Notes under the pieces: generated by a model
Seen by the model: the letters and a program-made list of their open reading frames with translations, nothing else
What the model was told of the DNA's origin: nothing
The model's database searches: none
Part shown: positions 4,928 through 60,454 of the stretch, one piece after another
Numbering within the stretch: the stretch's first letter is position 1
How the letters are laid out: every line of letters begins with the position of its first letter
Translations under genes and position numbers: made by a program
Assembly: GCA_016839705.1 (NCBI GenBank)
Contig: JAEOTR010000060.1
Coordinates: 64,001 to 128,000 of the forward strand
Origin: Promethearchaeota archaeon
GTDB taxonomy: Archaea; Asgardarchaeota; Lokiarchaeia; Sigyniarchaeales; SOKP01
Reading direction: 5' to 3'
DNA: 64,000 nucleotides

Positions 4928-5029
4928 TGGACCTGACGGGAATTGAACCCGTGACCTCTTGAATGCGAATCAGGTAGTTAAGCGTTCTGCTTAATTAAAT
5001 CAAGCGATCTTCCACTGATCTACAGGCCC
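4928..5029 (-). tRNA. tRNA-Ala(CGC) with a 30-nt intron at a non-canonical position in the anticodon arm
   Basis: Reverse complement GGGCCTG TA GATC AGTGGAA GATC G CTTGA T[30 nt]T CGC AT TCAAG AGGTC ACGGG TTCAATT CCCGT CAGGTCC A. It has the G3:U70 Ala identity pair, discriminator A and an intact T-arm; CCA is not encoded. Confidence 0.93.
4969..4998 (-). other. tRNA intron (30 nt; placed at 32/33, boundary ambiguous between 28/29 and 33/34)
   Basis: TTAATTAAGCAGAACGCTTAACTACCTGAT with internal hairpin TAATTAAGC-AGAAC-GCTTAACTA; the TGATT direct repeat at both ends makes the exact boundary ambiguous. Confidence 0.85.
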
Positions 5030-5116
5030 AAATATAATTATTTGTTTTTATATTTTAAAAATCAAATTACCTAAAATTTTTTATTATTTTTATGAGATTT
5101 TGAAATAAAAAAGAAG

Positions 5117-7495
5117 TTAGTATTCTGTTCGAACAATAATATCATCTTGTGCGCTTTTTGATAATTCTGTGAAATATACTGAATATCCAGCGATTCTAAC
5201 TACTAATCCTCTAAAATTATCAGGATTTTTTTGAGCTTCGTATAAAGTTTCTTTTCCCACAATATTAAATTGGACTTGATAACCACCTTCAGGTTCAAAG
5301 TAAGTTCTAATTAATGGTATTAGAAGATCCAATTTCAATGTATTCGGATGGAAGGATAAAATTAACGAATTACCGTTTGTCATCAATTCATTTTTTAACT
5401 TTTTAACAGAGTTAAGAATGGCTGTAGGTCCTTTTTCATCCATGGCACTTGTAGGGCAAAGACCATTCGAAAGTGGATCCGATTTTCTCCTACCATCTGC
5501 AGAAGCACCTGTAAAAACACCAAATGCTAAATGAAAAGTTGTGGAATAAATCCCAGGATTAAACTTCCCCCCGCGATAATTGGAATGCTTAGAAATTTCT
5601 TCACAATATAATTTTGCGATATCAACGGCAATTTCGTCGACATAATCGTTGTCATTCCCAAATTTAGGTATTTTATTTATAAAAAACTCCCGCCATTCTG
5701 TGCCTTTTTTTCCTTGATAAATACCCCTATAATTTTTAGTAAGCATTTGAACTATTTCTCCAAACGAGAGGATTTTTTCTTCAAAAACAACTTTTTTAAT
5801 TACCGCAAGACTATCTGAGACGGTGGCTAAACCAACCAGCTGAGGACCAGTAAAATTATAGATAGCACCGCCATTAGTTATATCTAATCCTCGGTCTATA
5901 CAATCATCTATAGTTGCTGATAAAAATGGTTGAGGTGTAAGTTCAGCTATTGATTTATCAAGAAAAAACATAGTCTTTACCATATAATCAATGAAAAATT
6001 TTACCTGATCCTTAAAAACTTTCCAGAGATCTTCATATGACTTGATTTTCTTTTCACTTTTAATTCCATATTCTTTTCGAGATACCATATCAATCCCGTT
6101 ATTTAATGTCAACTCTAAGCATTTCACAATATTGAATTGATTTGCATTTGTTGATCCGAATGATTTATATGGGTGCTGAGGTTCAACACATCCTATTGGC
6201 GCATATTCTCTAGCATCCTCCCGACTAAAACCCTGATTGATAAGACCAGGTATCATTACCTGATCATTAAGTAAAGCAATGCTAGTACCACTTTTTATTG
6301 ATTCCCCAACTTTAATAAGAAAATCTTCTGAAGTGTCTTTATGTATTCTAACGCAAAAAGTAGGTTGTACAGATTTTATATGGGTATAAGCATCTAAAAT
6401 TACCAGAGATAATTCATTTAAAGCATCCTTTCCTTCACGATCTAATCCTCCAATTACTACATTTTCAGCAATAGGTGGACCCTCAACGGCTACAACTCCT
6501 TTTGAAATAACATAATTCCATAAGGTCGAGAGCTTAATAAAAAAACATTCTATTAGAAATTGTGCTTTATCTCTTGTAACCTTTCCTTCTTTTAAATCTG
6601 CCAAATAATATGGATATAAATATTGATCTAATCGTCCTATTGAAATAGCAAAACCACCATCTTCTAAACCACATATTAAATGAGTAAAATATATTAATTG
6701 TAAGGCTTCTTCATAATTTTCTGGAGGTTTTCCAGAGATGTTATTACAAGCCTTAGAGATATCATAAAGTTCTTTTCTACGGACGGGGTTTCCTTCTTTT
6801 TCTGCCATATTTTTTGCCAAACTTGAGAACCTCTGTATGAATTTTCTAGCAGCTTTCAATAGAATGATTACTGATTCTAAAAATGTCTTTTTATTTCTAT
6901 CTTTAAAATATCTCCCCAAACTTCTTTCTGTTTTTTGAATCAATCCATTGATTCCAATCTTTAATAAATTTTCATGACCTGGAAAAAAATGACCAATTCC
7001 ACTAGAGAGTTCAACATCTACAGCAAATACAAGCTTTTCCATAATATTTTTAATATCTTGGTTTAAATAAGATTGAAATCGCTCTTGTACTGTGATTTCC
7101 TCGTTTTTCCAATAAGGTATTAGTTTTTCTCTTATATAGTGCTTTTCTGGATCTGCTAAAAAAAGCTTTTGAACAGGACGAGTATCATAACTATCAATAT
7201 CTTGTTCTATTGTATCTATTCGCGCTTCAGGAAATAAAGGTGTTCCCACGTATTTTGTACATCTGTTTCCAATAATAAATTCATCTTGCCATATTTTAAG
7301 TGTCATATTTGTTAAATAAAAATCCATGGCTTTTGCAAATCTAATGATTGGGTCTTCGCCTTTCGTTTTTTTGTAAGATTCTGTAAACAACTTAGCCCTT
7401 TCTATACAAATACCATGTGGTGAGGTTATTAGCTCATCCTTCATTCTCCGTGTCCGTTCTTTATAATTGGAAATCGAATTTTGTGTTAATTGCAT
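5117..7495 (-). CDS. Glycyl radical enzyme (PFL2/dehydratase-like family), substrate unknown
   Basis: C-terminal glycyl radical loop LVVRIAGYSVYF; single-Cys loop IGCVEP; SIGRLDQYLYPY; PKFGNDNDYVD; ASADGR. Confidence 0.92.
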   Translation of the reverse strand: MQLTQNSISNYKERTRRMKDELITSPHGICIERAKLFTESYKKTKGEDPIIRFAKAMDFYLTNMTLKIWQDEFIIGNRCTKYVGTPLFPEARIDTIEQDIDSYDTRPVQKLFLADPEKHYIREKLIPYWKNEEITVQERFQSYLNQDIKNIMEKLVFAVDVELSSGIGHFFPGHENLLKIGINGLIQKTERSLGRYFKDRNKKTFLESVIILLKAARKFIQRFSSLAKNMAEKEGNPVRRKELYDISKACNNISGKPPENYEEALQLIYFTHLICGLEDGGFAISIGRLDQYLYPYYLADLKEGKVTRDKAQFLIECFFIKLSTLWNYVISKGVVAVEGPPIAENVVIGGLDREGKDALNELSLVILDAYTHIKSVQPTFCVRIHKDTSEDFLIKVGESIKSGTSIALLNDQVMIPGLINQGFSREDAREYAPIGCVEPQHPYKSFGSTNANQFNIVKCLELTLNNGIDMVSRKEYGIKSEKKIKSYEDLWKVFKDQVKFFIDYMVKTMFFLDKSIAELTPQPFLSATIDDCIDRGLDITNGGAIYNFTGPQLVGLATVSDSLAVIKKVVFEEKILSFGEIVQMLTKNYRGIYQGKKGTEWREFFINKIPKFGNDNDYVDEIAVDIAKLYCEEISKHSNYRGGKFNPGIYSTTFHLAFGVFTGASADGRRKSDPLSNGLCPTSAMDEKGPTAILNSVKKLKNELMTNGNSLILSFHPNTLKLDLLIPLIRTYFEPEGGYQVQFNIVGKETLYEAQKNPDNFRGLVVRIAGYSVYFTELSKSAQDDIIVRTEY

Positions 7496-7599
7496 TTATA
7501 TCCCTAAATATTATTTATAATTTAGATTAATTAAAAGTATAAAATATCAGTTTAATATAGGTTTTCATTTTATTAAAGAAATTCTGGCACTTATAAGAT

Positions 7600-8436
7600 T
7601 TAGATATATTTCATTAAATGATTTTGGTCTTCAGGAGAAAATAATAGTTCGGATTTTCTTATATCTTTAAACCTTTTAATTGCTACGTCTAAATATTCTT
7701 TATTTGAATCTATTCCAATAAATTCACGTTTCAAAATACTACACACTATTCCTGTCGTGCCAGATCCTGTAAAAGGATCTAATATTAAATCTCCTTCATT
7801 TGATGAAGCAGAAATTATTCTGTTTAAAAGCTCTAAAGGTTTTTGAGTTGGGTGTTTACCAAATTTTTTTTCATTATTTGGGATTAATGGGATAGACCAT
7901 ACACTTCTCATTTGTTTGTCTGTATTTTTTAATTTATCCTTAGGATTATTCCATTTTTTCATTTTTTCATAATTATATATATGTTGAGAAATTTTCGATT
8001 TTCTTGCCCATAAAACAACCTCATGACTATGTGTGAAATATTTACATGATAGATTAGGTGGGGCATTAGGTTTAAACCAAATTATATCATTAATTATGTG
8101 GAAGTCATTTTTTTCCAATAAATATCCTACCTTATATATGTTATGCAGTGTACCAGAAACCCAAATACTCCCATCCTCCTTTAAGACTCTTTTACAACCT
8201 TTTAGCCAAGAATCTATAAAGGATATATCTTCATTAAAACCCTTCGATTTATCCCAATCACCCTTGTTAACAGAAACCATTTTTCCAGATTTGCAAGTAA
8301 CTCCATCATTGCTTAAAAAATAGGGAGGATCTGCGAAGATTAAATCAAATTTGTTGTTTTCCATTTGATTTAGGATATTTAAAGCATCTCCGTGATATAA
8401 AATAAAATTTTCTTCTTGAAAATAAGGTTTTATCAT
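7600..8436 (-). CDS. Orphan beta-class amino-DNA methyltransferase (DpnA/M.DpnIIB-like)
   Basis: DLIFADPPY precedes HPTQKP and LDPFTGSGTTG; LSNDGVTCKSGKMVSVNKGDWD is typical of DpnIIB-like enzymes. Confidence 0.9.
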   Translation of the reverse strand: MIKPYFQEENFILYHGDALNILNQMENNKFDLIFADPPYFLSNDGVTCKSGKMVSVNKGDWDKSKGFNEDISFIDSWLKGCKRVLKEDGSIWVSGTLHNIYKVGYLLEKNDFHIINDIIWFKPNAPPNLSCKYFTHSHEVVLWARKSKISQHIYNYEKMKKWNNPKDKLKNTDKQMRSVWSIPLIPNNEKKFGKHPTQKPLELLNRIISASSNEGDLILDPFTGSGTTGIVCSILKREFIGIDSNKEYLDVAIKRFKDIRKSELLFSPEDQNHLMKYI

Positions 8437-8591
8437 ATTTTAAAAGAAATATGTGAATTATATACAATTTGATAGAACAGATTAAGAAATTATAATACCT
8501 TTTAATTATTAACTTTAAAGTTTAATATTATCTAGTAATTAATATATACGAAGAGTCTCAAAATTTTAACTTTAACAAAAGAGAATTAAGA

Positions 8592-9533
8592 ATGATAAAT
8601 AAACAACAGTTTGAGGAGTTATTTAATCAACACCTTATTAAAGAAATTTCGGAAGAACATATTGAAATCGTTCTTTCAGGGCAATATGGTAAAGCACTTG
8701 AATTATTAAGGGATGCCGAAGCAACTGGTTTATTTCCCGCATTAGTGGGGCCACCTGGGGTCGGAAAAACTATTTTATGTCGATATTTCGCTAGTCTTAG
8801 AGCTAAAGAAAATAAAAATAAGAGTTTCAATTGGATGACGATGGACGAAAGTATTAAACCATCACATTTTCTTGGATCATTTGATCCAGCAATCACCTTG
8901 AAAAAAGGTTTTGTGTTAGAAGCATTTAATCCGGGACCTTTATTGAACGCTATGTTAGAGGGTGGAACATTCCTAGCAAACGAAATTAACAGGGCAACAG
9001 AATACTCTCAAAATACGTTATTAGAACCTTTGGAAGAAGCTTCAATTGGAATAGCTCATTTGGGAAGGATAAAAGCTGATAAGGATTTCTTTTTTATATG
9101 CGCAATGAATCCTGAAGAACTCTCGGGGACTCATAGATTATCTGAAGCATTAAAAGATAGGATAAAAGTGTGGATAAAATTAACATACCCTGATAAATCA
9201 ACTGAGTTAGACATTATAAGGATTAATTTACCCGAACATTTTCTTATAGAAGAATCAGAATTAGAATTAATATATTCAATCATTAAAGAAACTAGACAGA
9301 ATAAAGTTGATATTGAAATCCCTGCCTCTATAAGGGCTGGAATTGCTATAGCAAAATTAATGGGGAGGAGAAGGCTTATTGAAAAGGAGAAAAAAATGCA
9401 AGAAAAAGAATCTGCGTATGTACTTCTCTCTGAGATCTCTAGAAATGTTTTACTAGGAAGCATTAAACCAAAACCCGGGGTAAAAGTAGATAATGTTATA
9501 GAAAGTATTATCCATAAAACTTTAGGGGGATAA
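8592..9533 (+). CDS. MoxR-family AAA+ ATPase
   Basis: Walker A GPPGVGKT, Walker B variant FLANEINR, CAMNP sensor, GTHRLSEALKDR, and lid PASIR. Confidence 0.9.
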   Translation: MINKQQFEELFNQHLIKEISEEHIEIVLSGQYGKALELLRDAEATGLFPALVGPPGVGKTILCRYFASLRAKENKNKSFNWMTMDESIKPSHFLGSFDPAITLKKGFVLEAFNPGPLLNAMLEGGTFLANEINRATEYSQNTLLEPLEEASIGIAHLGRIKADKDFFFICAMNPEELSGTHRLSEALKDRIKVWIKLTYPDKSTELDIIRINLPEHFLIEESELELIYSIIKETRQNKVDIEIPASIRAGIAIAKLMGRRRLIEKEKKMQEKESAYVLLSEISRNVLLGSIKPKPGVKVDNVIESIIHKTLGG

Positions 9534-9537
9534 TCAC

Positions 9538-12027
9538 TTGGGGGTTTTTCCTGAAAATCCATGTGAGTTTGCCGTTGAGTTTATAAGAAGGATGAGAAAC
9601 CATCCAGATACGGTTCAAATTCCATCTTCAAGACAAGTTTTATCAATTCCAAAATTAATCGTCTCAAGATATTACCGTAAGGGTTCTGTAACTCCAAATG
9701 ATTTTATTGAAATTAGTACAGTTACGTCGTTTCCAGATAATCAAAATTTAGCAAAGGATATCGCATTTGAAGTTTTATTTCCGAATTATAAGAAAAATAT
9801 TATGAATTCTTTTTTTAATGATGGGGAAATAACTGAACTCGAAACCAAAAGTATCAGTACTGAAATAAAATCTGAATTAGACCAATTACAGGAATTAATT
9901 GATGAAATTGAAATGTCTCAATCAATAGATACAAATTTTATCCAACAAATGGAACAGTTTATGGAGACTCTGAACAAAAAAAGGGACGAAGATCTTATTA
10001 AAGCCGCAATGAACTTTTTTAATGATGATTCTGAATTATATAAGGAAGAGATAAATTCTTTTGATAAGTTACTTGAGGAAGCGAAAAAAAGGTTAATTCA
10101 AAGAATTAATTCGTTAGATCCTGATGATTTGAAAGCAAGTCATTCATTAGGATTAGATGATTTAATTCAAGAAAAATCAAAACGAACCTGGGAAAAATTA
10201 GCAACTAAAGCTCTTAATGATAAAGATATAACGCAAGATTTAGCGGATTTAATTAAATCTGGGAAAATTGAAGATTTAATACAATCTATCAAATATCTAG
10301 GTAAAACTAAAGCAGTTTCTAATGACATTCTACAAAATCTTAAGAATAACTTGCAAAATCATATTGATAATTTAGATCAATTGTTTAATGCCGCTAAAAC
10401 TTTAGGAGAAACTCCTAATTTTAATTTAGATGATATCTTAAATAATTCTCTACAATCTACCTCATTTGAACATAACTTTAATTTAGCAAATTCACTAGAT
10501 CAATTCTATGGAACTAACTTAAGAACCTCATTACTCGATAAGTTTAATCAACAAAATCCTAATTCTAAAATGAATCTTTCACTTGAATCATTAACTAAAA
10601 CAGCTTTTGCAAATAAATCGTGGAATAGTCTTTTCAATCAGGCACTCCAAAATGCTATAAAAGAAGCAATGCGTCAAAACAAAAAGTTTGAGGCTTTCAA
10701 ATCTCTTTCTCACCAACTACAGCAATTAGCAAATAGCTGTCAAAATTTACACTGTAGTCAAAAAATGGCTCAAAACCTTCCAAACCTTACATCTCTAACT
10801 TTAGAATCAAGTGAATCAGCGAATCAATTAAAAAACGTGACTGAATTCTTAAGAAAGATAGGTTTAAATCCCCAATCCGATGATATCAAAAGGATTGGTG
10901 AGAAACTTAATATGCCAGAGGAAGAAATTTATGAATTAATTGAACCAAATTATCAATTATTAAAAAAATTAGTTGAGAAAAAGACAGCAGATTTTCAGCG
11001 ATTAAGTAATTTGTTGAATCAAGTCAAGGATCAGTTAAACCCCGAAAGAGTTAATGAATTAATCGCTAGCGCATTAGCTTCTGATAACAGAGATGCTTTA
11101 GGTGCTTTAGGAAACTTCAATTTAAGTGAAGCCTTAAAAGGAGCCCAACAAGTTGGGGGTAAAGAGGCTCAGGATAAGATGATTTCCTGCTTATCAGCAG
11201 GAAGTGGGGAAAATTTACTTAAACAATGGTTTATGCATCGAGAGAAATTACCACAGAATGCAAAGCAAAAAGTAAAAGAATTAGCAAAGAAAGTATTAAT
11301 TGATCTCGGTATATACTATTCGCGTGCTCGTTTAGGTAGCTCTACAACTGGACCAATCCCGATAAATGTAGTAAGGCCTTATTCAATAGGGGATGATTTT
11401 GAAAATATAGACCTTGAAGAAACTATTTATAATATATTAGAAAAAGGGAAAAAACTAGATCATATAAAATATGATGATTTTTTCGTTTTTGAGACAGCTA
11501 AAGGTCTCAGAACAGCATGTTTTGAACTAGACATCTCAGGAAGTATGACTGGTGAAAAACTTGCCTATATGAGTATCTGTGTGACTATGCTTTGTTATGG
11601 AATGCGTAAGGATGAACTTGGAATCTCTTTCTTTGAATCTAATACGCATGTACTTAAAGATTTAAATCAAAAAATCGATTTAGAAAAATTAGCAGACGAT
11701 CTACTTTCTGTTTCTGCTCGAGGAGGTACAAAAATGCAAAGTGCTCTAGAATGGGCGAATAAGCAATTTAAAGAACATTCCTATTCACGTGAAAAATTAA
11801 ATGTACTGTTTACTGACGCAGAAATTTATGATCTTAAAGAAGCTCTGCAAGAATTTAGAATAATGCGTTCTCTAGGAGTAGACTTTATCTTAGTTTGCCC
11901 TGAAACCTCCTATAACCTAAAAGAAGCTAAAAAAATGGTTAAAGTTGCAGGAGGACAATTACTCACAATAAACAATTGGGATGAATTTCCAAAACTAATC
12001 TCTGAAATAATTAAATCAAGATTTTAA
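9538..12027 (+). CDS. VWA (MIDAS) domain protein, MoxR partner
   Basis: C-terminal DISGSM...GGT...FTD MIDAS; IDLEETI pre-VWA motif; co-operonic with MoxR (TTG start after GGGGGA). Confidence 0.85.
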   Translation: MGVFPENPCEFAVEFIRRMRNHPDTVQIPSSRQVLSIPKLIVSRYYRKGSVTPNDFIEISTVTSFPDNQNLAKDIAFEVLFPNYKKNIMNSFFNDGEITELETKSISTEIKSELDQLQELIDEIEMSQSIDTNFIQQMEQFMETLNKKRDEDLIKAAMNFFNDDSELYKEEINSFDKLLEEAKKRLIQRINSLDPDDLKASHSLGLDDLIQEKSKRTWEKLATKALNDKDITQDLADLIKSGKIEDLIQSIKYLGKTKAVSNDILQNLKNNLQNHIDNLDQLFNAAKTLGETPNFNLDDILNNSLQSTSFEHNFNLANSLDQFYGTNLRTSLLDKFNQQNPNSKMNLSLESLTKTAFANKSWNSLFNQALQNAIKEAMRQNKKFEAFKSLSHQLQQLANSCQNLHCSQKMAQNLPNLTSLTLESSESANQLKNVTEFLRKIGLNPQSDDIKRIGEKLNMPEEEIYELIEPNYQLLKKLVEKKTADFQRLSNLLNQVKDQLNPERVNELIASALASDNRDALGALGNFNLSEALKGAQQVGGKEAQDKMISCLSAGSGENLLKQWFMHREKLPQNAKQKVKELAKKVLIDLGIYYSRARLGSSTTGPIPINVVRPYSIGDDFENIDLEETIYNILEKGKKLDHIKYDDFFVFETAKGLRTACFELDISGSMTGEKLAYMSICVTMLCYGMRKDELGISFFESNTHVLKDLNQKIDLEKLADDLLSVSARGGTKMQSALEWANKQFKEHSYSREKLNVLFTDAEIYDLKEALQEFRIMRSLGVDFILVCPETSYNLKEAKKMVKVAGGQLLTINNWDEFPKLISEIIKSRF

Positions 12028-12035
12028 AGAAAAAA

Positions 12036-14384
12036 ATGACTGAAAAACCTATTTCAAGTTTAATAATTGAAAAGTTTGGTCTAGAATTTTATCAAAAATC
12101 TCTTAAATTCCCTAGTAATAAAATAAATATTTTTTTCATACGAGATGAACCATTAAAGATTAGAAGTGTCATTTTGGATAATGATCGTGAATATCATCTT
12201 ATCATCGATGAGAAAAACAATGAAATTTATCACGATTGCCCATTGTTTTTAATCCACTCAGAAAGAGATAAAAAGATTTGTGTGCATTTCATCAAATTGC
12301 TAATGAGTGTTAAAGTAAAATATTCAAACAAAATTTTATTAAAGTTAGATAAATATAGGCTATCTTCTGACGACTTAGGCTCTAAAAGAAAAGGAAAAAA
12401 CTTTCAAATATTGGCTAATAATTGCTACGATGCTAACAATTGTGTTGAGGCACTTAATTATTTGAATAAGGCAATAGTAAACCAATATAGCAATAAAGTT
12501 CTAATAAAACAGTTTCTAAATTTAGCAATTATTAATAATCTATTCATTGAGTTTTTTGAATTCTTGGAATACGGTTATGAGGATGGATTAAATGACTATT
12601 TCCTTCAGTATAATGATTATATTGAAGAAGGATTTAAAAAATTCCTCAATGTTATTCAAAAATATTCATTTTATAATTTACTAAAAATTGTTGAATCAAT
12701 AGATAGCATTATAGAATTTAATGGTGTTTCATTAGTAGCCTCTCTCATTAACAAATTAAAGAAACTCATAAATAGTGAACATTTTAATGACAATTATTTC
12801 TCTATATATATTATAATGAAATATAAAAGGGATTTGGTTGAATATAATTCTGAGTTTAAGGATATAATTACTCAAGATAGACTAAATAGACTTAAAGATA
12901 AATTGATTGATTATTTTAAATCTGAAATTGATAATTTTTGTTTAATCGACAAACTAAAACTATTAAAAAAACATTTTAGTATAATAGGAATTCCCAAAGT
13001 AATATTTAATCGTAACTATAAAAACTACAAGCAAGAAATAAAACAACTGGAGAAAAAATTATATTTAAAAAAATTTGCATTTATGAAATTATTGATAGAA
13101 AAGTACAACATAAACATTATTAAAGGTGATTTCAAAAAAAAAAGAAACGCCTATATTGTAAAACATGATGAAGAAAATTTAACGAATCCTGTTTATCACT
13201 ACATAATCACACGCATTGGGTTCTTTGGGTTAAATGATCAAACAATTAAGTCTTCAGAAATTGGATTTAACTATTTTTTTATAAAAGAATTATTCTTAGA
13301 TGATTTAAGGGCTTTTCAGGATGTTAATTACTATAAAACACAATTCTGGGGTGAAAATGATTATAGTATTAATTCAGTTGACGGATTTTCTTTATTAAGT
13401 AAAAATGTGGAATACAGTTATGAGGGTGAACAAAAATATTCTGATGATGTGAACATTATTGAATGGGATTTAGCCAGTAAACCAATCCAAGGAAGTATTG
13501 TTAGTGCTTATGGTTCTCAGATAATAATCCCTGATCAGAATAATTCCTTATTTCATGATTTAAAACCTTTTGATCTTTGTTATTGTAAAAAAACTCCAGT
13601 TAAAATTGAGAGTAACTTAATTAAAACTGTTAACGTGATTGCAAAATGCTCATTTAAGGATGTGATAAAAAGTGTTTCTTTAGGAATGACTTTTATTGAG
13701 GGATATTTTCCACTTTCTCTTGTCAAAGCAGTATTAGATAAAGAAATAAATCCATTTCAAGCAAACCAATTAGTAGTCGAAAACCCTAACAAAACATTTA
13801 TCCCAAATTATACTCAATTCGTTCAATCGTTTAGAGAGTTTCTATTTAGTTTTGTTTTTAAAGAAAAGAAATTTGTTTATGAAGAATTAAAATCTGATTT
13901 TGCTTCAAAAATAGATCAATTACTTCTATTATTAGATTTAACAAATGAATTAAACGGCTTGAATTTACCTTTTATCGAAATCATAAATGACCTACTATCT
14001 CTAGATCTCAATTTAAATGATATGAGATCTAAAATTTTAAGTGAAACTCATAGATATATAAAAAATATTTTAGATAAGCGAATTCGCGGAAGTACTGAGC
14101 TATTTGAACTGAAAAAGTTAAAGAATTCCCCGTTCATAAAATATACGAATGAGATTTTAAAAATAAGAAAAGAAGAATTTGAAGCAACAAACGTTTTAAA
14201 ATATTATGAAGATGGTGAACTAAAATATGATCTTACTGAAATAAGTAAAACATATTATGGTAAAAAATTCTTGGGGATTCTTCAATGTAGATATTTGACC
14301 CTGAAACCAGATGAATTCAAAAAATTCCAAAAATATTCTTTAAAATTGAACTTTCAATTGAATATTATCGAAAATCACACTTAA
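12036..14384 (+). CDS. Hypothetical protein with N-terminal SWIM-like zinc finger
   Basis: YHDCPLF...KICVHFIKLL (HxC...CxH), followed by helical/TPR-like segments. Confidence 0.65.
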   Translation: MTEKPISSLIIEKFGLEFYQKSLKFPSNKINIFFIRDEPLKIRSVILDNDREYHLIIDEKNNEIYHDCPLFLIHSERDKKICVHFIKLLMSVKVKYSNKILLKLDKYRLSSDDLGSKRKGKNFQILANNCYDANNCVEALNYLNKAIVNQYSNKVLIKQFLNLAIINNLFIEFFEFLEYGYEDGLNDYFLQYNDYIEEGFKKFLNVIQKYSFYNLLKIVESIDSIIEFNGVSLVASLINKLKKLINSEHFNDNYFSIYIIMKYKRDLVEYNSEFKDIITQDRLNRLKDKLIDYFKSEIDNFCLIDKLKLLKKHFSIIGIPKVIFNRNYKNYKQEIKQLEKKLYLKKFAFMKLLIEKYNINIIKGDFKKKRNAYIVKHDEENLTNPVYHYIITRIGFFGLNDQTIKSSEIGFNYFFIKELFLDDLRAFQDVNYYKTQFWGENDYSINSVDGFSLLSKNVEYSYEGEQKYSDDVNIIEWDLASKPIQGSIVSAYGSQIIIPDQNNSLFHDLKPFDLCYCKKTPVKIESNLIKTVNVIAKCSFKDVIKSVSLGMTFIEGYFPLSLVKAVLDKEINPFQANQLVVENPNKTFIPNYTQFVQSFREFLFSFVFKEKKFVYEELKSDFASKIDQLLLLLDLTNELNGLNLPFIEIINDLLSLDLNLNDMRSKILSETHRYIKNILDKRIRGSTELFELKKLKNSPFIKYTNEILKIRKEEFEATNVLKYYEDGELKYDLTEISKTYYGKKFLGILQCRYLTLKPDEFKKFQKYSLKLNFQLNIIENHT

Positions 14385-14386
14385 CA

Positions 14387-14713: not shown

Positions 14714-14885
14714 GTCTTTAAAGCAATAAGGACATTTATTAATGTTGAGTTTAGGACTACATTTTGAAATAAGAATTAATAAATTTTAGAAATTGAGATA
14801 TGAATATGTTTTTATTTTGCATAAATTTTATTCTAAATAGAAACTGAAAGTTAAATTTAAAAATAGTAAATATAACCCTCTAAAA

Positions 14886-50722: not shown

Positions 50723-50918
50723 AACTCTCCCTAGTCAAAAAGCAAAATTAAGTTTTATTCCTTCAATTTATAATTTTTTTTAGTCATTATAATTATTGTT
50801 GTTTTAAGAAATATCAGAAATTCTTGAATTTTCTCTCTACAAAAAAATTTATTGAATCAATTATTAAAATATTAAATATAAATTACACCCCCAATTTTCA
50901 AAGAAGTGTTGACGTTTT

Positions 50919-53708
50919 ATGGTTGAATATAACCCAAAAATAATTGAAGAGAAATGGCAAAAAAAGTGGGTAAAAGACAAAATATTTGAAGTCAAAGAAG
51001 AACCGAATAAGAAAAAATATTATGTATTAGAGATGTATCCATACCCATCAGGTAAACTACATATGGGACACCTTAGAAACTATACTATTGGTGATTGCTA
51101 TGCTAGATTTAAACGAATGAATGACTTTAATGTTCTTTATCCGATGGGTTATGACTCGTTTGGTATGCCTGCAGAAAATGCTGCTATTGATCACGGAGCT
51201 AATCCAGAGGATTGGACGAATAAAAACATAGAAACAATGAAAAAGCAACAGAAGAGGATTGGATTATCATATGATTGGACTAGAGAAATTTATAGCCATA
51301 ATCCTAATTTTTATAAATGGGATCAATGGTTTTTTTTAAAAATGTTAGAAAAGGGGTTAGCCTACAGGCAAGAAAGTTATGTTAATTGGTGCCCAAAATG
51401 CGCTACAGTATTAGCCAACGAGCAAGCTCAAGGAGGAAGATGCTGGAGATGCAATAATCTTGTTGATCAAAAATTTCTAACACAATGGTTTCTTAAGATA
51501 AGGGATTATGCTGAGGAACTACTCGAAGGATTAAATACAGTTGATTGGCCTGAAAAAGTAAAAATAATGCAACGAAATTGGATAGGTAGATCAAAGGGTA
51601 CTATTATAAAATTCCCAATTGTTAAAGAAGAAAAGACAATCGACATTTTTACGACAAGACCAGATACTCTTTATGGAGTTACCTTTATGGTTTTCGCTCC
51701 CGAACATCCATGGGTTCGTGATTGGGTGAAAGGAACGAACTATGAGAAAGAGTTTGAAAAGTTATACGATGAAGTTATGCATCAAGATAAATTTGAAAGA
51801 ACAGATATTGAAATAGAGAAAAAAGGGATTTTTATCGGAAAATATGCAATAAACCCAATAAATAATGAGGAAGTACCGATTTTTATTGGTAATTTTGTTA
51901 TCTATGAATATGGTGCAGGTGCCGTTATGGCAGTACCCGCACATGACCAAAGAGATTTTGAATTTGCAAAAGAATATGATATTCCAATTAGAATAGTAAT
52001 TCAACCACATGACTACGAATTGAATTTAACTAAAATAAATAGAGCATTTGAAGGTGATGGGGTTCTTGTAAACTCCGATGAATTTGATGGGATGGAGAAT
52101 CGATCTGCAATCAATGCAATTACAGAGAAATTAAATGATAATAATTTAGGGTATGCTACAATTAATTACAAATTAAGAGATTGGGGAATTTCACGTCAAC
52201 GGTATTGGGGCTGTCCAATTCCCGTTACTTATTGTGAAAAGTGTGGTATGGTTCCCGTACCATATGAAGATTTGCCAGTTTATTTACCAAAAGATGTTTC
52301 TTTCACCGGAGAAGGTAATCCATTGGAAACAAGCAAAACTTTTATTAATACAAAATGTCCGAAATGTGGTGGGACTGCAAAACGCGAGTCTGATACGATG
52401 GATACTTTTGTAGATAGTTCTTGGTATTTCTTCTCCTTTTGTGATCCACCTTCTGTGGAATCAGAGCTTCCATATAACAAAGAGGTTGTAAATTATTGGG
52501 GTAATGTTGACCAGTATATAGGAGGAATTGAACATGCTGTTATGCATCTAATATACGCACGGTTCTTCACAAAAGTTACACGAGATCTCGGTCTTCACAA
52601 ATTTGAAGAACCTTTTCAATCCCTACTTACTCAGGGAATGATTAATAAAATTCATCCCTATTGTTCTAACTGTAACGCTTTCCTAATGGAAGCAGATCTA
52701 GAACTGATGAAATGTAAGAAGTGTGGTAATACTAACCTAATTGAAAAATCCGTTAAAATGAGCAAAAGTTATGGTAATACAGTAGATCCTGGTGAAATTA
52801 TTGGTAAGTATGGAGCAGATGCGGCAAGGTTCTTTATATTATTCGGAGCTAGTCCTTCCTCCGGATTAGAGTGGTCTGATGAGGGTGTTGATTACGCTTA
52901 TAGGTTTATTAAGAATACTTTTACACTATTAACCGATCCCCCAAAAAATGTAAGGAAGGAATTAACGATTAGAGACACACTGATTAAATATTATTTAAAT
53001 AAGACTATCAAGGAATTTACTGGTAACATGCAGAATCTTGCAATTAGAAATGCGGTTAATAATATAATACAATTTGTATCAGAGCTTGGTAAGTATAAAG
53101 AGGAGGGTATAAAAAATGAAATTTTCGAAGAATGTCGAGAAAATCTACTGATACTTTTGCATCCAATTGCCCCACATATGACTGAAGAAGTTTGGGAAGT
53201 CATTGGTAAGAAGGGATATTTAAGTCTAAATCTCTGGGCTAATTATAACAAGGACCTTCTTACAGAAGAATCAGATTATAAGTGGGGATTAATGAATAAC
53301 ATCTTGGATGATATAAACAATATAAAAATAGCGATGAAGAAAGAAAACTTAAATTCCATTTCAATTATAATCGCTAATGAGTGGAAATTGAAACTTTATA
53401 AAACCCTAGTGCCATTGTTAGAAGAAACCAAAAATCAAGGGGAAATAATGAAAAAATTAATGCAAGATAATGATCTCAAGAAATATACTAAACAAATCGT
53501 GAAAATCGTGAACCGAATATTAAAGAATATAGGTAAATTTCCAAAATTTTGTTTATCTCCAGACGATGAATTTGAATTTTTTGATGAAATCAAACCGATT
53601 ATTGAAATGAAGTACAAAAGTGATGTTAAAGTTATTTTTGAGAAAGATTCAACCGAACAAAAAGCATCTCAAGCACTCCCAAGTAAACCTGCAATTATAA
53701 TCCAATAA
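50919..53708 (+). CDS. leuS: Leucyl-tRNA synthetase, bacterial-type core with archaeal-type C-terminal domain
   Basis: [60 protein letters not shown] and KMSKS. Confidence 0.96.
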
Positions 53709-53873
53709 TAACAGGAATTTTTCTTCCCACTTTTCTTCAAAGTTTAGTGCACTTGTTAAGAGTAGTTTATTAACTTAAGATTAAATAAATTATTTTTATT
53801 CATAAAACCTTAAATCTAATTAAAAAATGGATTTGTTTAATTCTAAGAAAATGTCAAAGGATTTTATACTAAA

Positions 53874-54743
53874 ATGACAATCTACGAACTTAGTATCATC
53901 TCAACAACTGGGTTCCCATATTATAATAAGGTAATTAACCCTATACCTGAAGGAGTAAGAATTTTTCTTAGATTTTTTGATTTTTCCAGTGATAAATCCA
54001 TTATCCATGACCAATTAGATTCCGATTCAAAATTTGATCTTACTGCCGGATTAATATCAGCTTTATTCGAATTTGCTCGCAATATAGATAAAAAAATTGT
54101 AAGACTTGAATTTAAAGCAAAGAAATCACCTAAAAATTCCAAAAAAGTAGAAGAAAAAAACAAAGAGAAAGGAGACGTATTGGTTACAGCCCAAACAGAA
54201 TCATTTCTACTCCATAATTCAGTGCGTGAAAAGGTTAGATTAATTTATAAGAATTTTATAAATGCTAAAGTTCCTCTCGACTCTGCGGATTCGATTATAA
54301 AAAATGAAGAGAATAAAATTATTGATATTTTAACAGATTCAAAAGCGAGAAAAACGATTTCTAATCACCAAAGTGAACTTAAACATACCGCAAACAACTT
54401 CATGAGTGAAATGAAAGATTATGGTCTATGGGGAATATGCATAACGTCATTTGATCTATCTCCTATAGTTGCATATGGCAAGAAATATTCCCTCAACCAT
54501 GTCAATGAAATTTTAAGGCATATCAGCTATATCCCTGATATTGATCCTTTAGAATGGATATATAGACAATCATTCTTTTCTGAGGAACAAATCCAAGTCT
54601 GCATTATCAAATCAGGCATAGGACCAACAATTGAAGATACATTATTCGAGCCCTATTTTTATCTACTATTTGCCGATCCTCAAAGTTATTTTGGAGAATT
54701 CCCTGCTAAACTGACTGCTGCGTTCAATAATATCCTTGGATAA
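53874..54743 (+). CDS. Hypothetical protein, longin/roadblock-like fold(s)
   Basis: N-terminal IYELSIISTTGFPYY beta-hairpin and LTAGLISALFEFA helix resemble Asgard longin-like domains; second half GLWGICITSFDLSPI. Recognised by eye only. Confidence 0.5.
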   Translation: MTIYELSIISTTGFPYYNKVINPIPEGVRIFLRFFDFSSDKSIIHDQLDSDSKFDLTAGLISALFEFARNIDKKIVRLEFKAKKSPKNSKKVEEKNKEKGDVLVTAQTESFLLHNSVREKVRLIYKNFINAKVPLDSADSIIKNEENKIIDILTDSKARKTISNHQSELKHTANNFMSEMKDYGLWGICITSFDLSPIVAYGKKYSLNHVNEILRHISYIPDIDPLEWIYRQSFFSEEQIQVCIIKSGIGPTIEDTLFEPYFYLLFADPQSYFGEFPAKLTAAFNNILG

Positions 54744-54770
54744 AAAACCTAAAATTCAAGAGATATAAGA

Positions 54771-55541
54771 CTATTGAATACTTTTCTCAGCAGCTTGCAC
54801 TATCTCAGCTAGGGACTCTGATTGAAGTGAAGCCCCACCAACTAAACCACCATCAATATTCTCTTTGCTAAATAGGATTTCAGCATTTTGTGGCTTTATT
54901 GACCCACCATATTGTATCCTTACTGAATCTGCGGTCTCTTGGTTATATTTTTGAGAAATTAATTCACGTATAAACATGTGAATCTCCTCTGCCTGCTCAG
55001 GAGTCGCTGTTTTTCCTGTACCTATTGCCCAGATTGGTTCATATGCTATTACTGTTTGAATCATCTGATCTCTCGTAAGATCCTTAAAAGATCCCATCAT
55101 TTGGTTTTCTATTACATCTTTGGTTCTTCCTGTTTCTCTTTCCTCTAGATGTTCACCAATGCATACTATAGGTTTTAAACCAATCATTAAAGCTTTTTTC
55201 AATTTTTTATTAACTATTACATCTGATTCATTGAAAATATTTCTTCTTTCACTATGTCCAAGAATAATATATTCAACTCCAATTTCCTTTAAAAACTGTG
55301 GTGATATTTCCCCGGTAAAGGCTCCCTTTTCTTCATAATACATATTCTGAGCTCCAAGCTTAACATTTGTATCTTTTATAATTTCATAAGCACTTATCAA
55401 TCCCGTAAATGGAGGTGCGATTACCACCTCAACATTTATTACATTTTTAATCAGAGGAACGAAATCAATCAACATTTCTTTCGATTCTTTCGGTGTACCT
55501 CTATTCATCTTCCAATTTCCCCCAATTATTGGTTTTCTCAA
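54771..55541 (-). CDS. tpiA: Triosephosphate isomerase (bacterial/eukaryotic type)
   Basis: GGNWKMN, GAFTGEIS, GHSERR, AYEPIWAIGTG, YGGS and LVGGASL; probable TTG start at 55541 after GAGG. Confidence 0.97.
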   Translation of the reverse strand: MRKPIIGGNWKMNRGTPKESKEMLIDFVPLIKNVINVEVVIAPPFTGLISAYEIIKDTNVKLGAQNMYYEEKGAFTGEISPQFLKEIGVEYIILGHSERRNIFNESDVIVNKKLKKALMIGLKPIVCIGEHLEERETGRTKDVIENQMMGSFKDLTRDQMIQTVIAYEPIWAIGTGKTATPEQAEEIHMFIRELISQKYNQETADSVRIQYGGSIKPQNAEILFSKENIDGGLVGGASLQSESLAEIVQAAEKSIQ

Positions 55542-55663
55542 CTTCTTTAACCTCAAAATATTTTTAAATATTAAAAATACCAATTTTCGTTATTTATCAA
55601 TTAAGATACAGAGACTATTAAACTCTCACGAAAAATTTAAAAAATATAATCAAAAAGAAAGAG

Positions 55664-56173
55664 CTAAGATAATTCAGATTTAGGAAGTTTTTCAGGTAGT
55701 TTAGTGGCTTCTAAGAGCTTTTTTACTTCATCCATATCAGGAGCCATTATCTCTGGCAAACCTAATTGTGTACGCCTTCTTTCTATAGCAGGTTGCATTG
55801 GAATTGCTTTTCCATGCTCTAACACTGTTGAAGCTTGACCTGTATAATGAACAGGTGCTTCACCTCTCTCTACACTCATATTTTTTAAAAGTGTAAAGAT
55901 CTCTGTTAGCTCAACTTTTTGAGGACATACTTCATCACACGTGTCACATACAGTACATCCCCAAATATTAAAAGCATTCTCTGGTCCAAATATTTTCTCT
56001 TTAAGACCTAATAGGGCATCTAAAATTAACCGCCTCGGGTTGTATCTACCCTCAGTAACCTGCGCTACCGGACATGCTCCACTACAAGTTGCACATTGAT
56101 AACAATATGCTAATGTATTACCAATCTCATTTCCAAGAATTTGGTTTCTGAAATCAAAATCTATAGTTGCCAT
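55664..56173 (-). CDS. hdrC: Heterodisulfide reductase subunit C-like 2[4Fe-4S] protein
   Basis: CYQCATCSGACP, YNPRRLI and WGCTVCDTCDEVCPQ. Confidence 0.88.
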   Translation of the reverse strand: MATIDFDFRNQILGNEIGNTLAYCYQCATCSGACPVAQVTEGRYNPRRLILDALLGLKEKIFGPENAFNIWGCTVCDTCDEVCPQKVELTEIFTLLKNMSVERGEAPVHYTGQASTVLEHGKAIPMQPAIERRRTQLGLPEIMAPDMDEVKKLLEATKLPEKLPKSELS

Positions 56174-56579
56174 ATGAATTGATCTGTTTATCTTATTATT
56201 ATCTAGTATAACTTATTGTCGATTTTAAAATTAATTCTTTTAAAATTTAGTTTTAAAATTAGTAAATTCACTTCATTTGCAGAAGTTTCAACTCTGATTG
56301 TTTCAAGTAATCTAATGATAAAATATCTATCAAAAATTGTTGCTTCAATGCTTATTTACACTTTCGTGTAATGTTATTCTTAACACATGAGATAAGGTAT
56401 TATTTTAGTTAGAAGTTCCAGTATTATTGTTAAATAGATCGGTACCTGCATTACTTTATCGCGATTTTTGAACTTTATGCTCTTTTCAGCACACACATTT
56501 ATAGTTAGAGTTTTTATTTATTAATTAACAATTTTGTATATTTTTTCTTAAAAATCTATTCAAAACACTGAGTAAAAGA

Positions 56580-57284
56580 TTGCCAGGTATGATAAAAGAA
56601 GTAATAATACGTGTATCTGAAAAATTTATTATAGTTATTATTTCCATCTTTTTGTATGTACCAATAATAGTTGGTATTTTATCACCAATGTTAATATTCT
56701 TCCCACTTGATCTTTATATTTCTTGGTCATTAATCGGAGATAGGCTGTGGATGTGGGGTTATTATCTAATTCCTTCACACTCACTTACTCTGGTAATCTC
56801 GATTGAAGCGTTTCTATTTTGCTTTGGATTAGGATTACTTCTATCTGGGTTATTTACCTTGGTAAAAGAAAAAATAAAGGGAGTTGGGTTGGTTAAGACC
56901 GGAATATATAAATATTTTCGACACCCGCAGAATTTAGGCATTGTCCTAATGGTGCTCCCATTCGCAATATACGTTCCAGGATTCAGAGATATTGGAATTA
57001 GAATGGGCGAGATAGCATCTTGGCTATATTTTGCCTTCTTTATGTGCCTCTATTCTTTTTATGAGGAATGGCGTTTATCAAGAAAATATGAAAATGAATA
57101 CCTAGAATATTATGGAAAAACAGGACACTTCATTCCTAAAATAAAAGATAAAAAAACTGAAACTCCACCAAGAATAAATTTCCTAAAGAAAATTCTAATA
57201 ACAGTTTTAGTATACGTGTCCTTTTATTTTCTACTCGACTTGATAATACGATTATTCTTTGATTTAATAATCTATTACAAATAA
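56580..57284 (+). CDS. Isoprenylcysteine carboxyl-/phospholipid methyltransferase-family membrane protein
   Basis: LVKTGIYKYFRHPQNLG and EEWRL..KY..EY.EY...T..FIP; several TMs. Confidence 0.85.
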   Translation: MPGMIKEVIIRVSEKFIIVIISIFLYVPIIVGILSPMLIFFPLDLYISWSLIGDRLWMWGYYLIPSHSLTLVISIEAFLFCFGLGLLLSGLFTLVKEKIKGVGLVKTGIYKYFRHPQNLGIVLMVLPFAIYVPGFRDIGIRMGEIASWLYFAFFMCLYSFYEEWRLSRKYENEYLEYYGKTGHFIPKIKDKKTETPPRINFLKKILITVLVYVSFYFLLDLIIRLFFDLIIYYK

Positions 57285-57558
57285 AACATAGGTTTGATTT
57301 TTTCTGGTGTAATTTCATACAAATAACCGATAATATTTGTAAAGGAGTAAGCCGAAATGCTGCTGTTGAATATATAAAGGAAATGAGTTTATGGGAAATT
57401 CAACAATAGTACTGGGTAACAATGTTAAGTTTCTAAATATCAGTCTCATCAGTATTAAATTCATTTAATTTAAATATTATAATTGTATAAAGAATATCTT
57501 GAAGGGTAAAACTATATCGAGTATTATTAAGTAAGTATGTTAAAAAAAAAAAATTTGT

Positions 57559-59661
57559 ATGCCATCCCAGAAATTAAGTTTATTAAGCTTAGTAAGGTAT
57601 ACCAAGAACGAACTTCTACTTGAATCGTTCCTACAGGCAAAAGGTGAACATCGATATAGGATTTTAGAAAGATATAAAAAGAAAGGGCGTTCACTCAAAC
57701 TTAAAGTAATAATTACTAAAATCATATATGCGGTTATATTTGGCATTCTTCCTATAATGCCATTATTAACTTATTTTCAAATTATCGAAAACCTTATAGA
57801 AAGTCCTGTTTCAATTGAAAGTATAATATTTTTTGGAAGTATTCTCTTTACATTGTATTTTAGTCTACAATTTTTTAATTTCTTTCTAATGGGGCTATTA
57901 GAATCTGGTATGATAATGTCTGGTATTATCTTTCGTTGGCTTGAAACTTTGCCAATTTCAAGAGATAAATTACACAAATTAGCTTATTTAACTATATTCC
58001 GAAGTTTTGATATCCCGATGATTGTAATTGTATTAGGGTTTCCAATTGCAATACTCGTTGGAACTCAGAACATCCTAATTTTTTTTGTAGCTTTAGGTAT
58101 TTCACTCTTAAATATTATTTTTTCCTTTAATCTTCTTATTATTTTTGGAGAAAGACTCAATTGTGTCTTAGATTTTAACAAAGGTAGTTCGAAACGATCA
58201 CTTTTAATTAGGTTGTTTCATATCCTGAGTTATTTAATAGTAATTCTTGGAAGCATATATATAATCCAGTGGGTTTTTAGCTCACTTGATGAGATTTTTC
58301 GATTAATTATAGAACTCGAATACCCTTCAATGGTAAATCTTATTCTTAGCATGATACCATATCCCTTCAATCCAAGTTATTTATTCTCAAGAATTATTAC
58401 ATTTAATCAAGGTTCTTTAGAATCCTGGGTCAGTATCTTTATTGGTTTAGGGCTATTTATAATTCTAACCTGGTGGAGTCATCTAAAAGCATCAAAAACA
58501 CTTAAAAAAATCACATATACGAAATATCGAAATACTAATAAAGATGGTCGTTCAGAATTAGTAGGAAATGAAATTCACATTAGGATTAAAACTCACTCTC
58601 CAATTGAAGCATATTTACGTAAAGATTTATCCGCAGCTTCACACGATCTTAAAACACTTCTATCTATGATAATGCCTATAATCCTCTCATGTATTTTTTC
58701 CTTTTCCTTTAATATTGGTAATATGGGAGTTGCGATTTTATTAGAAAGAGATCTATTTTATAATTGGGTGGGTATATTGTTTTTTAGTCCAGTAATATCC
58801 AGTATGCTAGTATATGGGGTATTAAATATAGAGATATCCGGTAAATCTGTTATGGCATCGCTACCGATCAATCCTCGAGAACAAGCAATTGCAAAATTTG
58901 AATTATTAATAATTCTTCAAACACTTGCAGTATTTACTCCTCTCTTGATATATATAAATACAGACAAATTTCTTCTTTTACTCTTCACAGTATTATTAAC
59001 TCTACCTACAGTATGGGTATATATAGTTTTAACTTTTGAATTAAGAGTTCTCTATTTTGGTAAATTTAAAAACCATTATGTAGTTGATGAAGTTAATCCA
59101 GAAAGTAGGAGTTTTAAATGGATTTTAATCTTGTGTATTCAAGATATTATCTCTTTCTGGCAAATCTCAGTCTTAATTACATTTTATTTAAATCAGCAAT
59201 TTCTTAATTCATTAATTTTCTCCTTTTTTGCAGTAGATTTAATAGGATTCCTAAGCGTTGTTGTTTTATTTGAAAAAATTTTCCCAGATCTTCCAGCATT
59301 CAAAACAATTCCCATATTTCAATACGATTTCCAAAATTTGCCCAAATATACATTAGATGCAAAACTTACCACGCTTCCTTCAGCTGAGAAAGCACAAATA
59401 ATTAAAGAAATGAATAAAAATCCCGATGTATATTCTGATAAGATAAAAGAGAAAATTGACCTAGGAAATAAATTAATGAAACAAGAAAAATTCGATGAAT
59501 CAATACATGAATTTCAAATTGCTTTAACTCTTATTAAAGAGAAATTTAACATTTTACCCGATACAATAAGAAATAGGTTTAATGAGGGAAACGAAATTAG
59601 AGAAATTTATAGTTTAATTAATCAATTGGAAATTAATAAAATTAAAAACAAGGAGCAATAA
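57559..59661 (+). CDS. Polytopic membrane protein, ABC-2 permease-like, with helical (TPR-like) C-terminal tail
   Basis: Two TM blocks each containing a WLETLPIS / MASLPINPRE motif; C-terminal GNKLMKQEKFDESIHEFQIAL. Confidence 0.65.
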   Translation: MPSQKLSLLSLVRYTKNELLLESFLQAKGEHRYRILERYKKKGRSLKLKVIITKIIYAVIFGILPIMPLLTYFQIIENLIESPVSIESIIFFGSILFTLYFSLQFFNFFLMGLLESGMIMSGIIFRWLETLPISRDKLHKLAYLTIFRSFDIPMIVIVLGFPIAILVGTQNILIFFVALGISLLNIIFSFNLLIIFGERLNCVLDFNKGSSKRSLLIRLFHILSYLIVILGSIYIIQWVFSSLDEIFRLIIELEYPSMVNLILSMIPYPFNPSYLFSRIITFNQGSLESWVSIFIGLGLFIILTWWSHLKASKTLKKITYTKYRNTNKDGRSELVGNEIHIRIKTHSPIEAYLRKDLSAASHDLKTLLSMIMPIILSCIFSFSFNIGNMGVAILLERDLFYNWVGILFFSPVISSMLVYGVLNIEISGKSVMASLPINPREQAIAKFELLIILQTLAVFTPLLIYINTDKFLLLLFTVLLTLPTVWVYIVLTFELRVLYFGKFKNHYVVDEVNPESRSFKWILILCIQDIISFWQISVLITFYLNQQFLNSLIFSFFAVDLIGFLSVVVLFEKIFPDLPAFKTIPIFQYDFQNLPKYTLDAKLTTLPSAEKAQIIKEMNKNPDVYSDKIKEKIDLGNKLMKQEKFDESIHEFQIALTLIKEKFNILPDTIRNRFNEGNEIREIYSLINQLEINKIKNKEQ

Positions 59662-59863
59662 CCAAATTTTCGTCAATCTTCTTCACTTACTAACTTTTTT
59701 AAACGAACTAATCTAACTATTTAGAACATCTTAAGAAACAATAACTAGATTTTTTAATTGTGGTTATTTGGAAATACTTTGTCTTAGGGTAAGTGACTAT
59801 TCTGGAACCTGCTACTGATAATAAAAAAGAAAAGAAAAAAAGAAAAAATTTCAGATTTATTAA

Positions 59864-59894
59864 GGATGGTTTACCTTTCGAAGGTTCCCCATCC
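59864..59894. other. GC-rich intergenic hairpin
   Basis: GGATGG-TTT-ACCTT-TCG-AAGGT-TCC-CCATCC in an otherwise very AT-rich spacer. Confidence 0.6.
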
Positions 59895-60067
59895 CATCTC
59901 ACTGTGATTTATGCATTTTTTGATTTCTTATGATATACTAAAATGATTTCATCATTAAAATCCATTTATAAATTCTAAATAAAACCAATAAAAGCAATTA
60001 AATATTTATTCCCACAATTATATAACAAAAACAAAAATAATTGTAAAACACACAAAATTGAATTATC

Positions 60068-60454
60068 ATGACAAAAATAGAAGAACTCCAAGAATTTGGA
60101 CTTGAAATCACCGATGACCTAAAAGAAGGCAAGGTTATCCTCGATGTATACACTGAAATTTGAGTGAATATATCACTCAAACAGGATTGGTGTGGACCTT
60201 GCAAATTTGTTAGCCCTGTTCTAGAGAAACTGAAGAATGAAGGATTAATTAAGTTATTGAAAGAGGACTTAGATAAAAATCGACCACTCGGCGAAAGATT
60301 TGGAATTACTGCCATACCAACATTGCTTTTTTTCAAAAATGGTGAACTCTTAAACCACCCGATAGAAGTTCAGGGCCAAATGCTAGTAAGAAATGGTGTG
60401 ATGGTGGGGGCTGCCGGGGAGCCTATTTTAAGACAAATTATTGACCAGATGTAG
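60068..60454 (+). CDS. trxA: Thioredoxin, split by a candidate 30-nt intron (exons 60068-60157 and 60188-60454, 118 aa)
   Basis: Exon 1 MTKIEELQEFGLEITDDLKEGKVILDVYTE joins exon 2 WCGPCKFVSPVLEKL...GITAIPTLLFFKNG; the unspliced frame has TGA at 60161. Confidence 0.85.
60158..60187 (+). other. Candidate BHB-type intron in thioredoxin mRNA
   Basis: ATTTGAGTGAATATATCACTCAAACAGGAT; perfect 9-bp stem TTTGAGTGA/TCACTCAAA; flanking ACTG/CAGG helix with 3-nt bulges AAA and ATT. Confidence 0.72.

Follow-up and report, generated by a model that had tools for sequence, protein, structure and literature searches.

The question raised by this locus is whether a tRNA-Ala(CGC) gene and a thioredoxin gene, both interrupted by 30 extra nucleotides (nt) in one 64,000-nt stretch of a Promethearchaeota archaeon genome, carry the same kind of element, and if so why the two inserts share a length. 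The stretch analyzed, hereafter the window, is positions 64001-128000 of contig C49, in an assembly of 3.36 Mb that is 93% complete with 6.8% contamination. The original prediction divided both inserts into 1 nt, a 9-nt arm, a 5-nt loop, a second 9-nt arm, 4 nt and a final AT, and proposed either a common recognition rule or transposition between tRNA and mRNA. We confirmed this division, including the one mismatch in the tRNA stem, and the junction letters on which the proposal also leaned, TGAW-W at the 5' end and GAT-T at the 3' end (W, A or T; hyphens mark the junction), were read correctly in both inserts. Our interpretation is that the two are introns of one kind, which the tRNA-splicing pathway would remove, and that the same pathway would act on at least seven further coding genes.

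The archaeal splice motif pairs four bases of the exon with four of the intron, each flanking bulge has three bases, and the cut falls after the second bulge base (PMC5829648, PMC2738675). The two inserts would follow a relaxed version of this arrangement, termed HBh', in which four exon bases pair near the 3' end of the intron to form a central helix, three bases bulge, and the intron itself closes as a hairpin; a broad-specificity EndA endonuclease would cut behind base 2 of each bulge, and RtcB would ligate the exons. The layout of one base, hairpin, four bases and two bases exists because archaeal splicing geometry requires it, and all 27 tRNA introns that we parsed by hand in this genome (an incomplete set) fit it, 20 of them with four of four central pairs. 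The agreement of the two inserts in this layout exceeds chance. Sliding the register by one to three columns drops pairing from 87% to 25-43%. The common layout is thus the known relaxed HBh' rule of EndA substrates and no new rule, and to that extent the recognition rule of the original prediction stands. The genome encodes an EndA alpha subunit (closest structure 3p1z_B, E 1.3e-34, the alignment spanning the N-terminal loop and the catalytic Y/H/K) and an intact RtcB gene; published Asgard EndAs are (alpha-beta)2 enzymes with an L1 loop (PMC5829648). A group I or group II intron would have a ribozyme core of some hundreds of bases, and the thioredoxin insert is 30 nt long, with no Rfam match in the window.

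The thioredoxin insert forms a perfect 9-bp stem with a 5-nt loop and places an in-frame TGA at 60161-60163. Its predicted splice product is a 118-residue thioredoxin reading YTE-WCGPC, with the stop codon gone, and the 37-nt junction segment folds with a z-score of -4.58 (0 of 200 shuffles as good). An insert at the same site is found in seven genomes of two genera, namely the genome studied here, five in or near its genus, and G109 from the other genus, related genomes being non-independent samples in this and all other cross-genome counts. In most relatives the insert is precisely absent, and the closest intronless ones read YTEWCGPC exactly. A thioredoxin tree constructed without G109 groups the six remaining carriers and three intronless members into a single clade; one of the intronless three is the sister of a carrier, a pattern that fits precise intron loss. 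The closest thioredoxins that carry organism names come mainly from Promethearchaeota (Lokiarchaeia) metagenome assemblies, and further insert sites exist among thioredoxins of relatives: 25 nt near codon 68 (G029, G012 and the second copy of G032) and 30 nt directly after CGPC (G129).

One could envision instead that this gene is a pseudogene, or a split gene with a truncated product started at a GTG in the insert, the hairpin remaining unspliced. A 96-codon frame does begin at GTG 60164, and folding with the flanks disfavors the central helix (see below). However, among six carriers exon 1 is variable at 19 of the 25 third positions and at 2 of the 25 second positions, exon 2 at 21 of 25 third positions, with only one or two variable second positions in each exon; within the insert 3 of 10 third positions vary, the changes lying in the loop, the last bases and one stem position. 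By these counts both exons are under purifying selection, and exon 1, which a truncated product would lack, is so in every intron-bearing lineage. The pairing between exon and intron also covaries: G109 reads ACC in place of ACT at a Thr codon and CGG in place of CAG at the intron bases that pair with it (U-A to C-G), and one stem pair has likewise gone from U-A to C-G, a second compensatory change. This signal was reached in 10 of 500 shuffles and depends on the single genome G109. Together with losses that are exact to the base and a nearest other thioredoxin in the assembly that is only 29% identical, these data make loss of function or truncation improbable.

Because the insert is in frame and its TGA is kept in seven of seven genomes, the TGA might alternatively encode selenocysteine, with the ten extra codons staying in the protein, and the genome does contain TGA-containing genes of selenoprotein type (HdrA and VhuD). 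However, the TGA is not aligned with a Cys of homologs, the variation in the insert tracks the RNA loop and not codon position, and sister inserts contain TAA or shift the frame. No conserved element resembling a selenocysteine insertion sequence lies downstream (none in five of six genomes and one weak, unshared match in the other), by a simple pattern that recovered one of three controls, VhuD. Thioredoxin is furthermore outside the seven Asgard selenoprotein families (PMC11227280), and we regard this explanation as the least credible of those considered. Read-through as a general explanation is ruled out because the inserts frameshift and carry TAA stops. We consider splicing of the thioredoxin mRNA at the predicted sites highly probable.

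Excision of 30 nt from the tRNA gene gives a normal 72-nt tRNA-Ala(CGC) as in intronless orthologs. The intron stem has nine positions with a single A.C mismatch, and a TGATT direct repeat allows six placements; we place the intron at 32/33 because the central helices of orthologs fix the register. In the 20 Ala(CGC) genes of the genus that carry the intron, the intron strand of this helix is CAAG in 11, CATG or CGAG in 8, and CCTG in one, the copy in this genome. CAAG pairs with the exon CTTG at four of four positions and orthologs in general at four or three, so that CCTG, at two of four, is best described as decayed. Intron length in these genes is 30 nt in 16 and 29 nt in 4, seven further genes being intronless, and eight of nine stem pairs are altered on both sides among the orthologs (0 of 500 shuffles equal). 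Placement at 33/34 would give three of four central pairs, yet it yields no in-register stem and is contradicted by the orthologs. No tRNA was detected here by Rfam or by ARAGORN run on the window; with introns allowed, ARAGORN called the gene Val(TAC), a miscall.

Seven more coding genes of the genome have such inserts, of 27-32 nt, four of them frameshifting; the lengths for all eight coding introns are 27, 29, 30, 30, 30, 31, 32 and 32 nt. A first whole-genome scan that ranked by intron folding energy was over-loose, returning 7364 candidates, and many false positives remained in later scans; an insert was counted only where it restores a known motif or agrees with homologs. In the structure scan the highest ranks went to thioredoxin and an EF-2-family gene, and a BadF/HgdC-family ATPase was recovered as well; a looser scan added RNase HII (30 nt) and mevalonate kinase (31 nt). 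A structure-blind comparison against a 1.2-Mb sample of the relative G006 (1065 reading-frame alignments, stop-containing gaps upstream of the first Met or close to the ends of genes being excluded by eye) returned five inserts that break the frame within conserved coding sequence: IscU (27 nt), a Rab-like GTPase (29 nt), EF-2 (30 nt), thioredoxin (30 nt) and a dodecin-like gene (32 nt), the last name being our own reading of its sequence with no search behind it. All five have the HBh' shape, and ordinary stop-free in-frame indels do not. Six of the eight inserts lie in or adjoin a conserved catalytic or nucleotide-binding motif.

The EF-2 insert is present in 15 genomes scattered over the tree, is 30 nt in every one and shows one G-C/A-U pair change; four genomes have a 30-nt insert at a second EF-2 site. 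At the ATPase site, which is flanked by the Pfam positions 1-135 and 136-271 of BadF/HgdC, seven genomes have introns of 27, 30, 30, 32, 32, 32 and 35 nt whose stems are unrelated yet still pair, the central helix being invariant. RNase HII is single-copy in the genome, and in a neighboring family 5 of 13 loci were readable by pattern, all 5 intronless; a search of the assembly with residues 1-368 of EF-2 turned up no further EF-2 gene. We conclude that mRNAs of this genome very probably need splicing. Separately, every coding insert observed with a length divisible by three (in frame) contains a stop codon, four of these inserts coming from the structure-blind search, too few for inferring a bias. 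At C9:66131 (+), close to where a 193-codon frame begins, a perfect HBh' hairpin of 31 nt is a candidate ninth coding intron. In the relative G006, a 258-codon gene that is uninterrupted in the genome studied here carries a 30-nt HBh' insert with a stop codon (L170:19625).

Several observations weigh against this interpretation, in addition to the non-independence of the genomes noted above. Cleavage and ligation in the cell, and splicing itself, are what we infer from sequence. Within the 37-nt thioredoxin segment the splice fold is the favored one, but when flanking exons are included, ViennaRNA puts the central helix 1.2-3.1 kcal/mol above a competing exon-exon helix in six of six genomes, and the thioredoxin RNA may, on these modeled energies, be an inefficient substrate; the EF-2, IscU and RNase HII inserts fold straight into the splice form. 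The central helix of thioredoxin has only three pairs (three of four in all seven genomes) and that of the tRNA-Ala copy here only two. The thioredoxin outer helix closes solely over a longer 3' loop, and tRNA-Ala at 32/33 has no in-register outer helix, so neither shows the strict hBHBh' form, in which an exon-exon helix closes the second bulge. No EndA beta subunit was identified in the genome, and only three of eight coding introns are exactly 30 nt.

This last count bears on the question of length. The 27 tRNA introns measure 19, 22, 22, 25, 25, 26, 27, 29, 29, ten times 30, 33, 34, 38, 44, 45, 47, 49 and 49 nt; exactly 30 nt occurs in none of 6 at the canonical position 37/38 and in 10 of 21 elsewhere. 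The introns are unrelated in sequence, and the probability of such a spike at 30 nt is ~1e-5 when a normal curve is fitted to the data and 3e-4 for a narrow curve centered on 30. An enzyme or cofactor that measures 30 nt and reads GAW at both junctions could account for this spike and for the 30-nt length of all 7 inserts at the thioredoxin site and all 19 at the two EF-2 sites. However, conserved frameshifting coding introns of 25, 29, 31, 32 and 35 nt exist, one coding site alone ranges from 27 to 35 nt, the tRNA introns span 19-49 nt, and a genome from another order lacks the spike (0 of 22) in a rough automatic parse, the parser being one that, when checked on the Promethearchaeota genome, fused some double introns. 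Such a measuring device is therefore very unlikely. What remains of the recognition rule, beyond known geometry, is a preference: 30 nt is a real but soft mode, common to tRNA and coding introns of this genus and built of a 9-bp stem and a 5-nt loop, and not a fixed ruler. The mode looks lineage-specific, the medians for an Asgard panel being 22-23 nt in a recent preprint (10.64898/2026.10.13.758758).

The junction letters fare worse than the length. Among the tRNA introns of the genome, where the original prediction would have 30-nt length and GAT-T ends both enriched, the length is (10 of 27) and the ends are not (2 of 27, both at 32/33). GAT-T is also found in only one of eight coding introns and one of seven thioredoxin orthologs, the other six ending GAC, CAA or GAA; TGAW-W occurs only in tRNA-Ala and thioredoxin, the pair originally compared; and GAW at the 5' side occurs in 3 of 27 tRNA and 4 of 8 coding introns, G109 thioredoxin having TA-A at this bulge, with T in place of the first A. 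In tRNAs the T at 32/33 corresponds to the invariant U33, and the G there is paired with C27; in thioredoxin the T opens the Trp codon. The letters are not more than chance and context would give, and the GAW motif is not borne out. The first bulge base is A in 24 of 27 tRNA and 8 of 8 coding introns at the 5' site and in 20 of 27 and 8 of 8 at the 3' site; this is a preference only, because the scan had a 5' A as a requirement in two of the eight coding cases and G109 has T. In crystal structures the first bulged A is held in a cation-pi pocket (PMC12397907).

The identity of length and layout could also mean that the two inserts are recent relatives, copied between tRNA and mRNA as in the Thermoproteales, and patchy presence on gene trees shows that introns are gained and lost precisely. 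However, the tRNA-Ala and thioredoxin cores align with a score of 3 (P = 1.0 against shuffles), and among all 216 tRNA-mRNA pairs (8 x 27) the best score is 10, where the maximum under a hairpin-preserving null averages 10.3; a likeness between the EF-2 and tRNA-Ala stems (common ATTAAG) is non-significant (P 0.22). The thioredoxin intron is common to another genus and therefore not recent, and copying between tRNA genes is almost nil in other Asgard families (10.64898/2026.10.13.758758). We thus find recent transposition, the second proposal of the original prediction, very unlikely, slightly more so than a measuring enzyme. Because stems turn over fast, to the point of being unalignable at one site within the genus, old copying or a common origin could still lie behind the resemblance.

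As for the reason that 30 nt is favored, frame-keeping does not serve: tRNAs are frameless and four of the eight coding inserts frameshift. A more speculative reading is that the tRNA and mRNA introns of this Lokiarchaeia lineage form one population, in which a single insertion process delivers hairpin units of ~30 nt wherever four bases and an A permit the splice shape. EndA and RtcB might, for example, insert them by reverse splicing, with the result later fixed in DNA; stems would then lose all sequence likeness and the birth length would persist. We think this possible, though rather less than an even chance.

Table 1. Features of the two interrupted window genes (window coordinates) and sites of the other coding inserts (contig coordinates, with locus positions in parentheses).
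Feature	Position	Strand	Remarks
Thioredoxin gene	60068-60454	+	30 extra bases between YTE and WCGPC
Thioredoxin exon 1	60068-60157	+	30 codons, ending YTE
Exon half of splice motif, thioredoxin	60152-60157	+	ACTG central helix (3 pairs + A.G), bulge AA
Predicted mRNA intron	60158-60187	+	30 nt: 1 nt, arm 60159-60167, loop, arm 60173-60181, CAGG, AT
Thioredoxin exon 2	60188-60454	+	Begins at WCGPC active site; Pfam PF00085, E 4.3e-14
tRNA-Ala(CGC) gene	5029-4928	-	Exon 1 31 nt, one intron at 32/33, mature form 72 nt; intronless orthologs in 7 genomes
tRNA intron	4998-4969	-	30 nt: 1 nt, 9-nt arm 4997-4989, 5-nt loop, 9-nt arm 4983-4975, CCTG 4974-4971, AT
Exon half of splice motif, tRNA-Ala	4999-5004	-	CTTG (tRNA positions 27-30) and bulge A31, U32
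EF-2-family insert	C82:11187 (L048:688-717)		30 nt
Rab-like GTPase insert	C82:13897	-	29 nt; neighbors EF-2-family gene
BadF/HgdC-family ATPase insert	C56:55470 (L049:971-1002)		32 nt, frameshifting
RNase HII insert	C25:55280		30 nt, splits DEAGRGP motif
IscU insert	C85:74326		27 nt
Mevalonate kinase insert	C29:8703		31 nt
Dodecin-like gene insert	C29:83095	-	32 nt

The tRNA-Ala gene is flanked in the window by genes for a valyl-type class I tRNA synthetase (2202-4811) and a glycyl-radical (PFL-like) enzyme (5117-7495), and upstream of thioredoxin are triosephosphate isomerase and a 4Fe-4S protein (feature 54771-56173); the window frames 57559-59661 and 61771-63240 are without a Pfam match. 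Elsewhere in the assembly, a tRNA at C87:134764-134939 reads Ile(UAU), an anticodon unusual for archaea, once three introns (25, 45 and 30 nt) are removed. Three different tRNA genes parse as Ser(CGA) (C48:1730, C81:106525 and C93:1708) and Ser(GGA) was not found by pattern; contamination, contigs missing from the assembly or an incorrect parse may lie behind this.

The closest precedent is the cbf5 pre-mRNA intron of Crenarchaeota (Watanabe 2002; Yokobori 2009, PMC2738675), likewise a short coding insert beside a catalytic codon with a relaxed bulge-helix-bulge (BHB) motif, a hetero-oligomeric EndA and patchy gain and loss. In contrast to cbf5, where splicing was shown by complementary DNA, splicing here is predicted, the lineage is Promethearchaeota, and at least eight other genes of one genome are concerned instead of one; the host is a thioredoxin (PF00085) and not cbf5 at its catalytic Asp codon, so the intron would be cbf5-like in how it works. 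In Haloferax, a BHB intron in the 5' untranslated region (UTR) of HVO_1309 (PMC7714728) is similarly mRNA cut by the tRNA-splicing endonuclease, but it lies outside the coding sequence and leaves the reading frame unbroken. The published mRNA cases are thus cbf5, within coding sequence, and the Haloferax 5' UTR (PMC2738675, PMC7714728), with unconfirmed predictions for other genes in the 2009 paper (PMC2738675); our search, which most subscription journals lie outside, found no literature on Asgard coding introns. The tRNA-Ala 32/33 intron is an ordinary member of the non-canonical HBh' tRNA introns (Marck and Grosjean 2003 via PMC5829648; 10.64898/2026.10.13.758758), which occupy many positions with almost no gene-to-gene copying. 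The transposed tRNA introns of Thermoproteales (Fujishima 2010, as relayed in 10.64898/2026.10.13.758758) are also many, non-canonical and limited by the need for a BHB, but by that account related sequences recur across tRNAs, whereas here none rises above the null. The preprint's census of Asgard tRNAs, the source of the medians above, covers other families and mentions neither mRNA introns nor a 30-nt mode, whereas here one length dominates tRNA and coding genes alike. The EndA intron is therefore of a known kind, and what is new, and we believe real, is its extension to many mRNAs and the soft 30-nt mode they have in common with tRNA introns.

Coding-sequence splicing by this endonuclease in archaea is documented, in searchable papers, for cbf5 alone; here at least eight genes, some with no second copy in the assembly, seem to depend on it. 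In that case conserved genes are being truncated or dropped when these genomes are annotated, and mRNA splicing by tRNA-splicing enzymes would be routine in a lineage near eukaryotes. In eukaryotes, the ligase step of HAC1/XBP1 splicing uses a tRNA-splicing enzyme. The thioredoxin and BadF/HgdC sites provide natural series of length and sequence for enzyme assays. The 30-nt mode common to the tRNA and coding introns is a clue to how they arrive, which is the central open problem for Asgard tRNA introns according to the 2026 preprint, and a single insertion process, if true, would be an active route of intron spread into the protein genes of archaeal relatives of eukaryotes.

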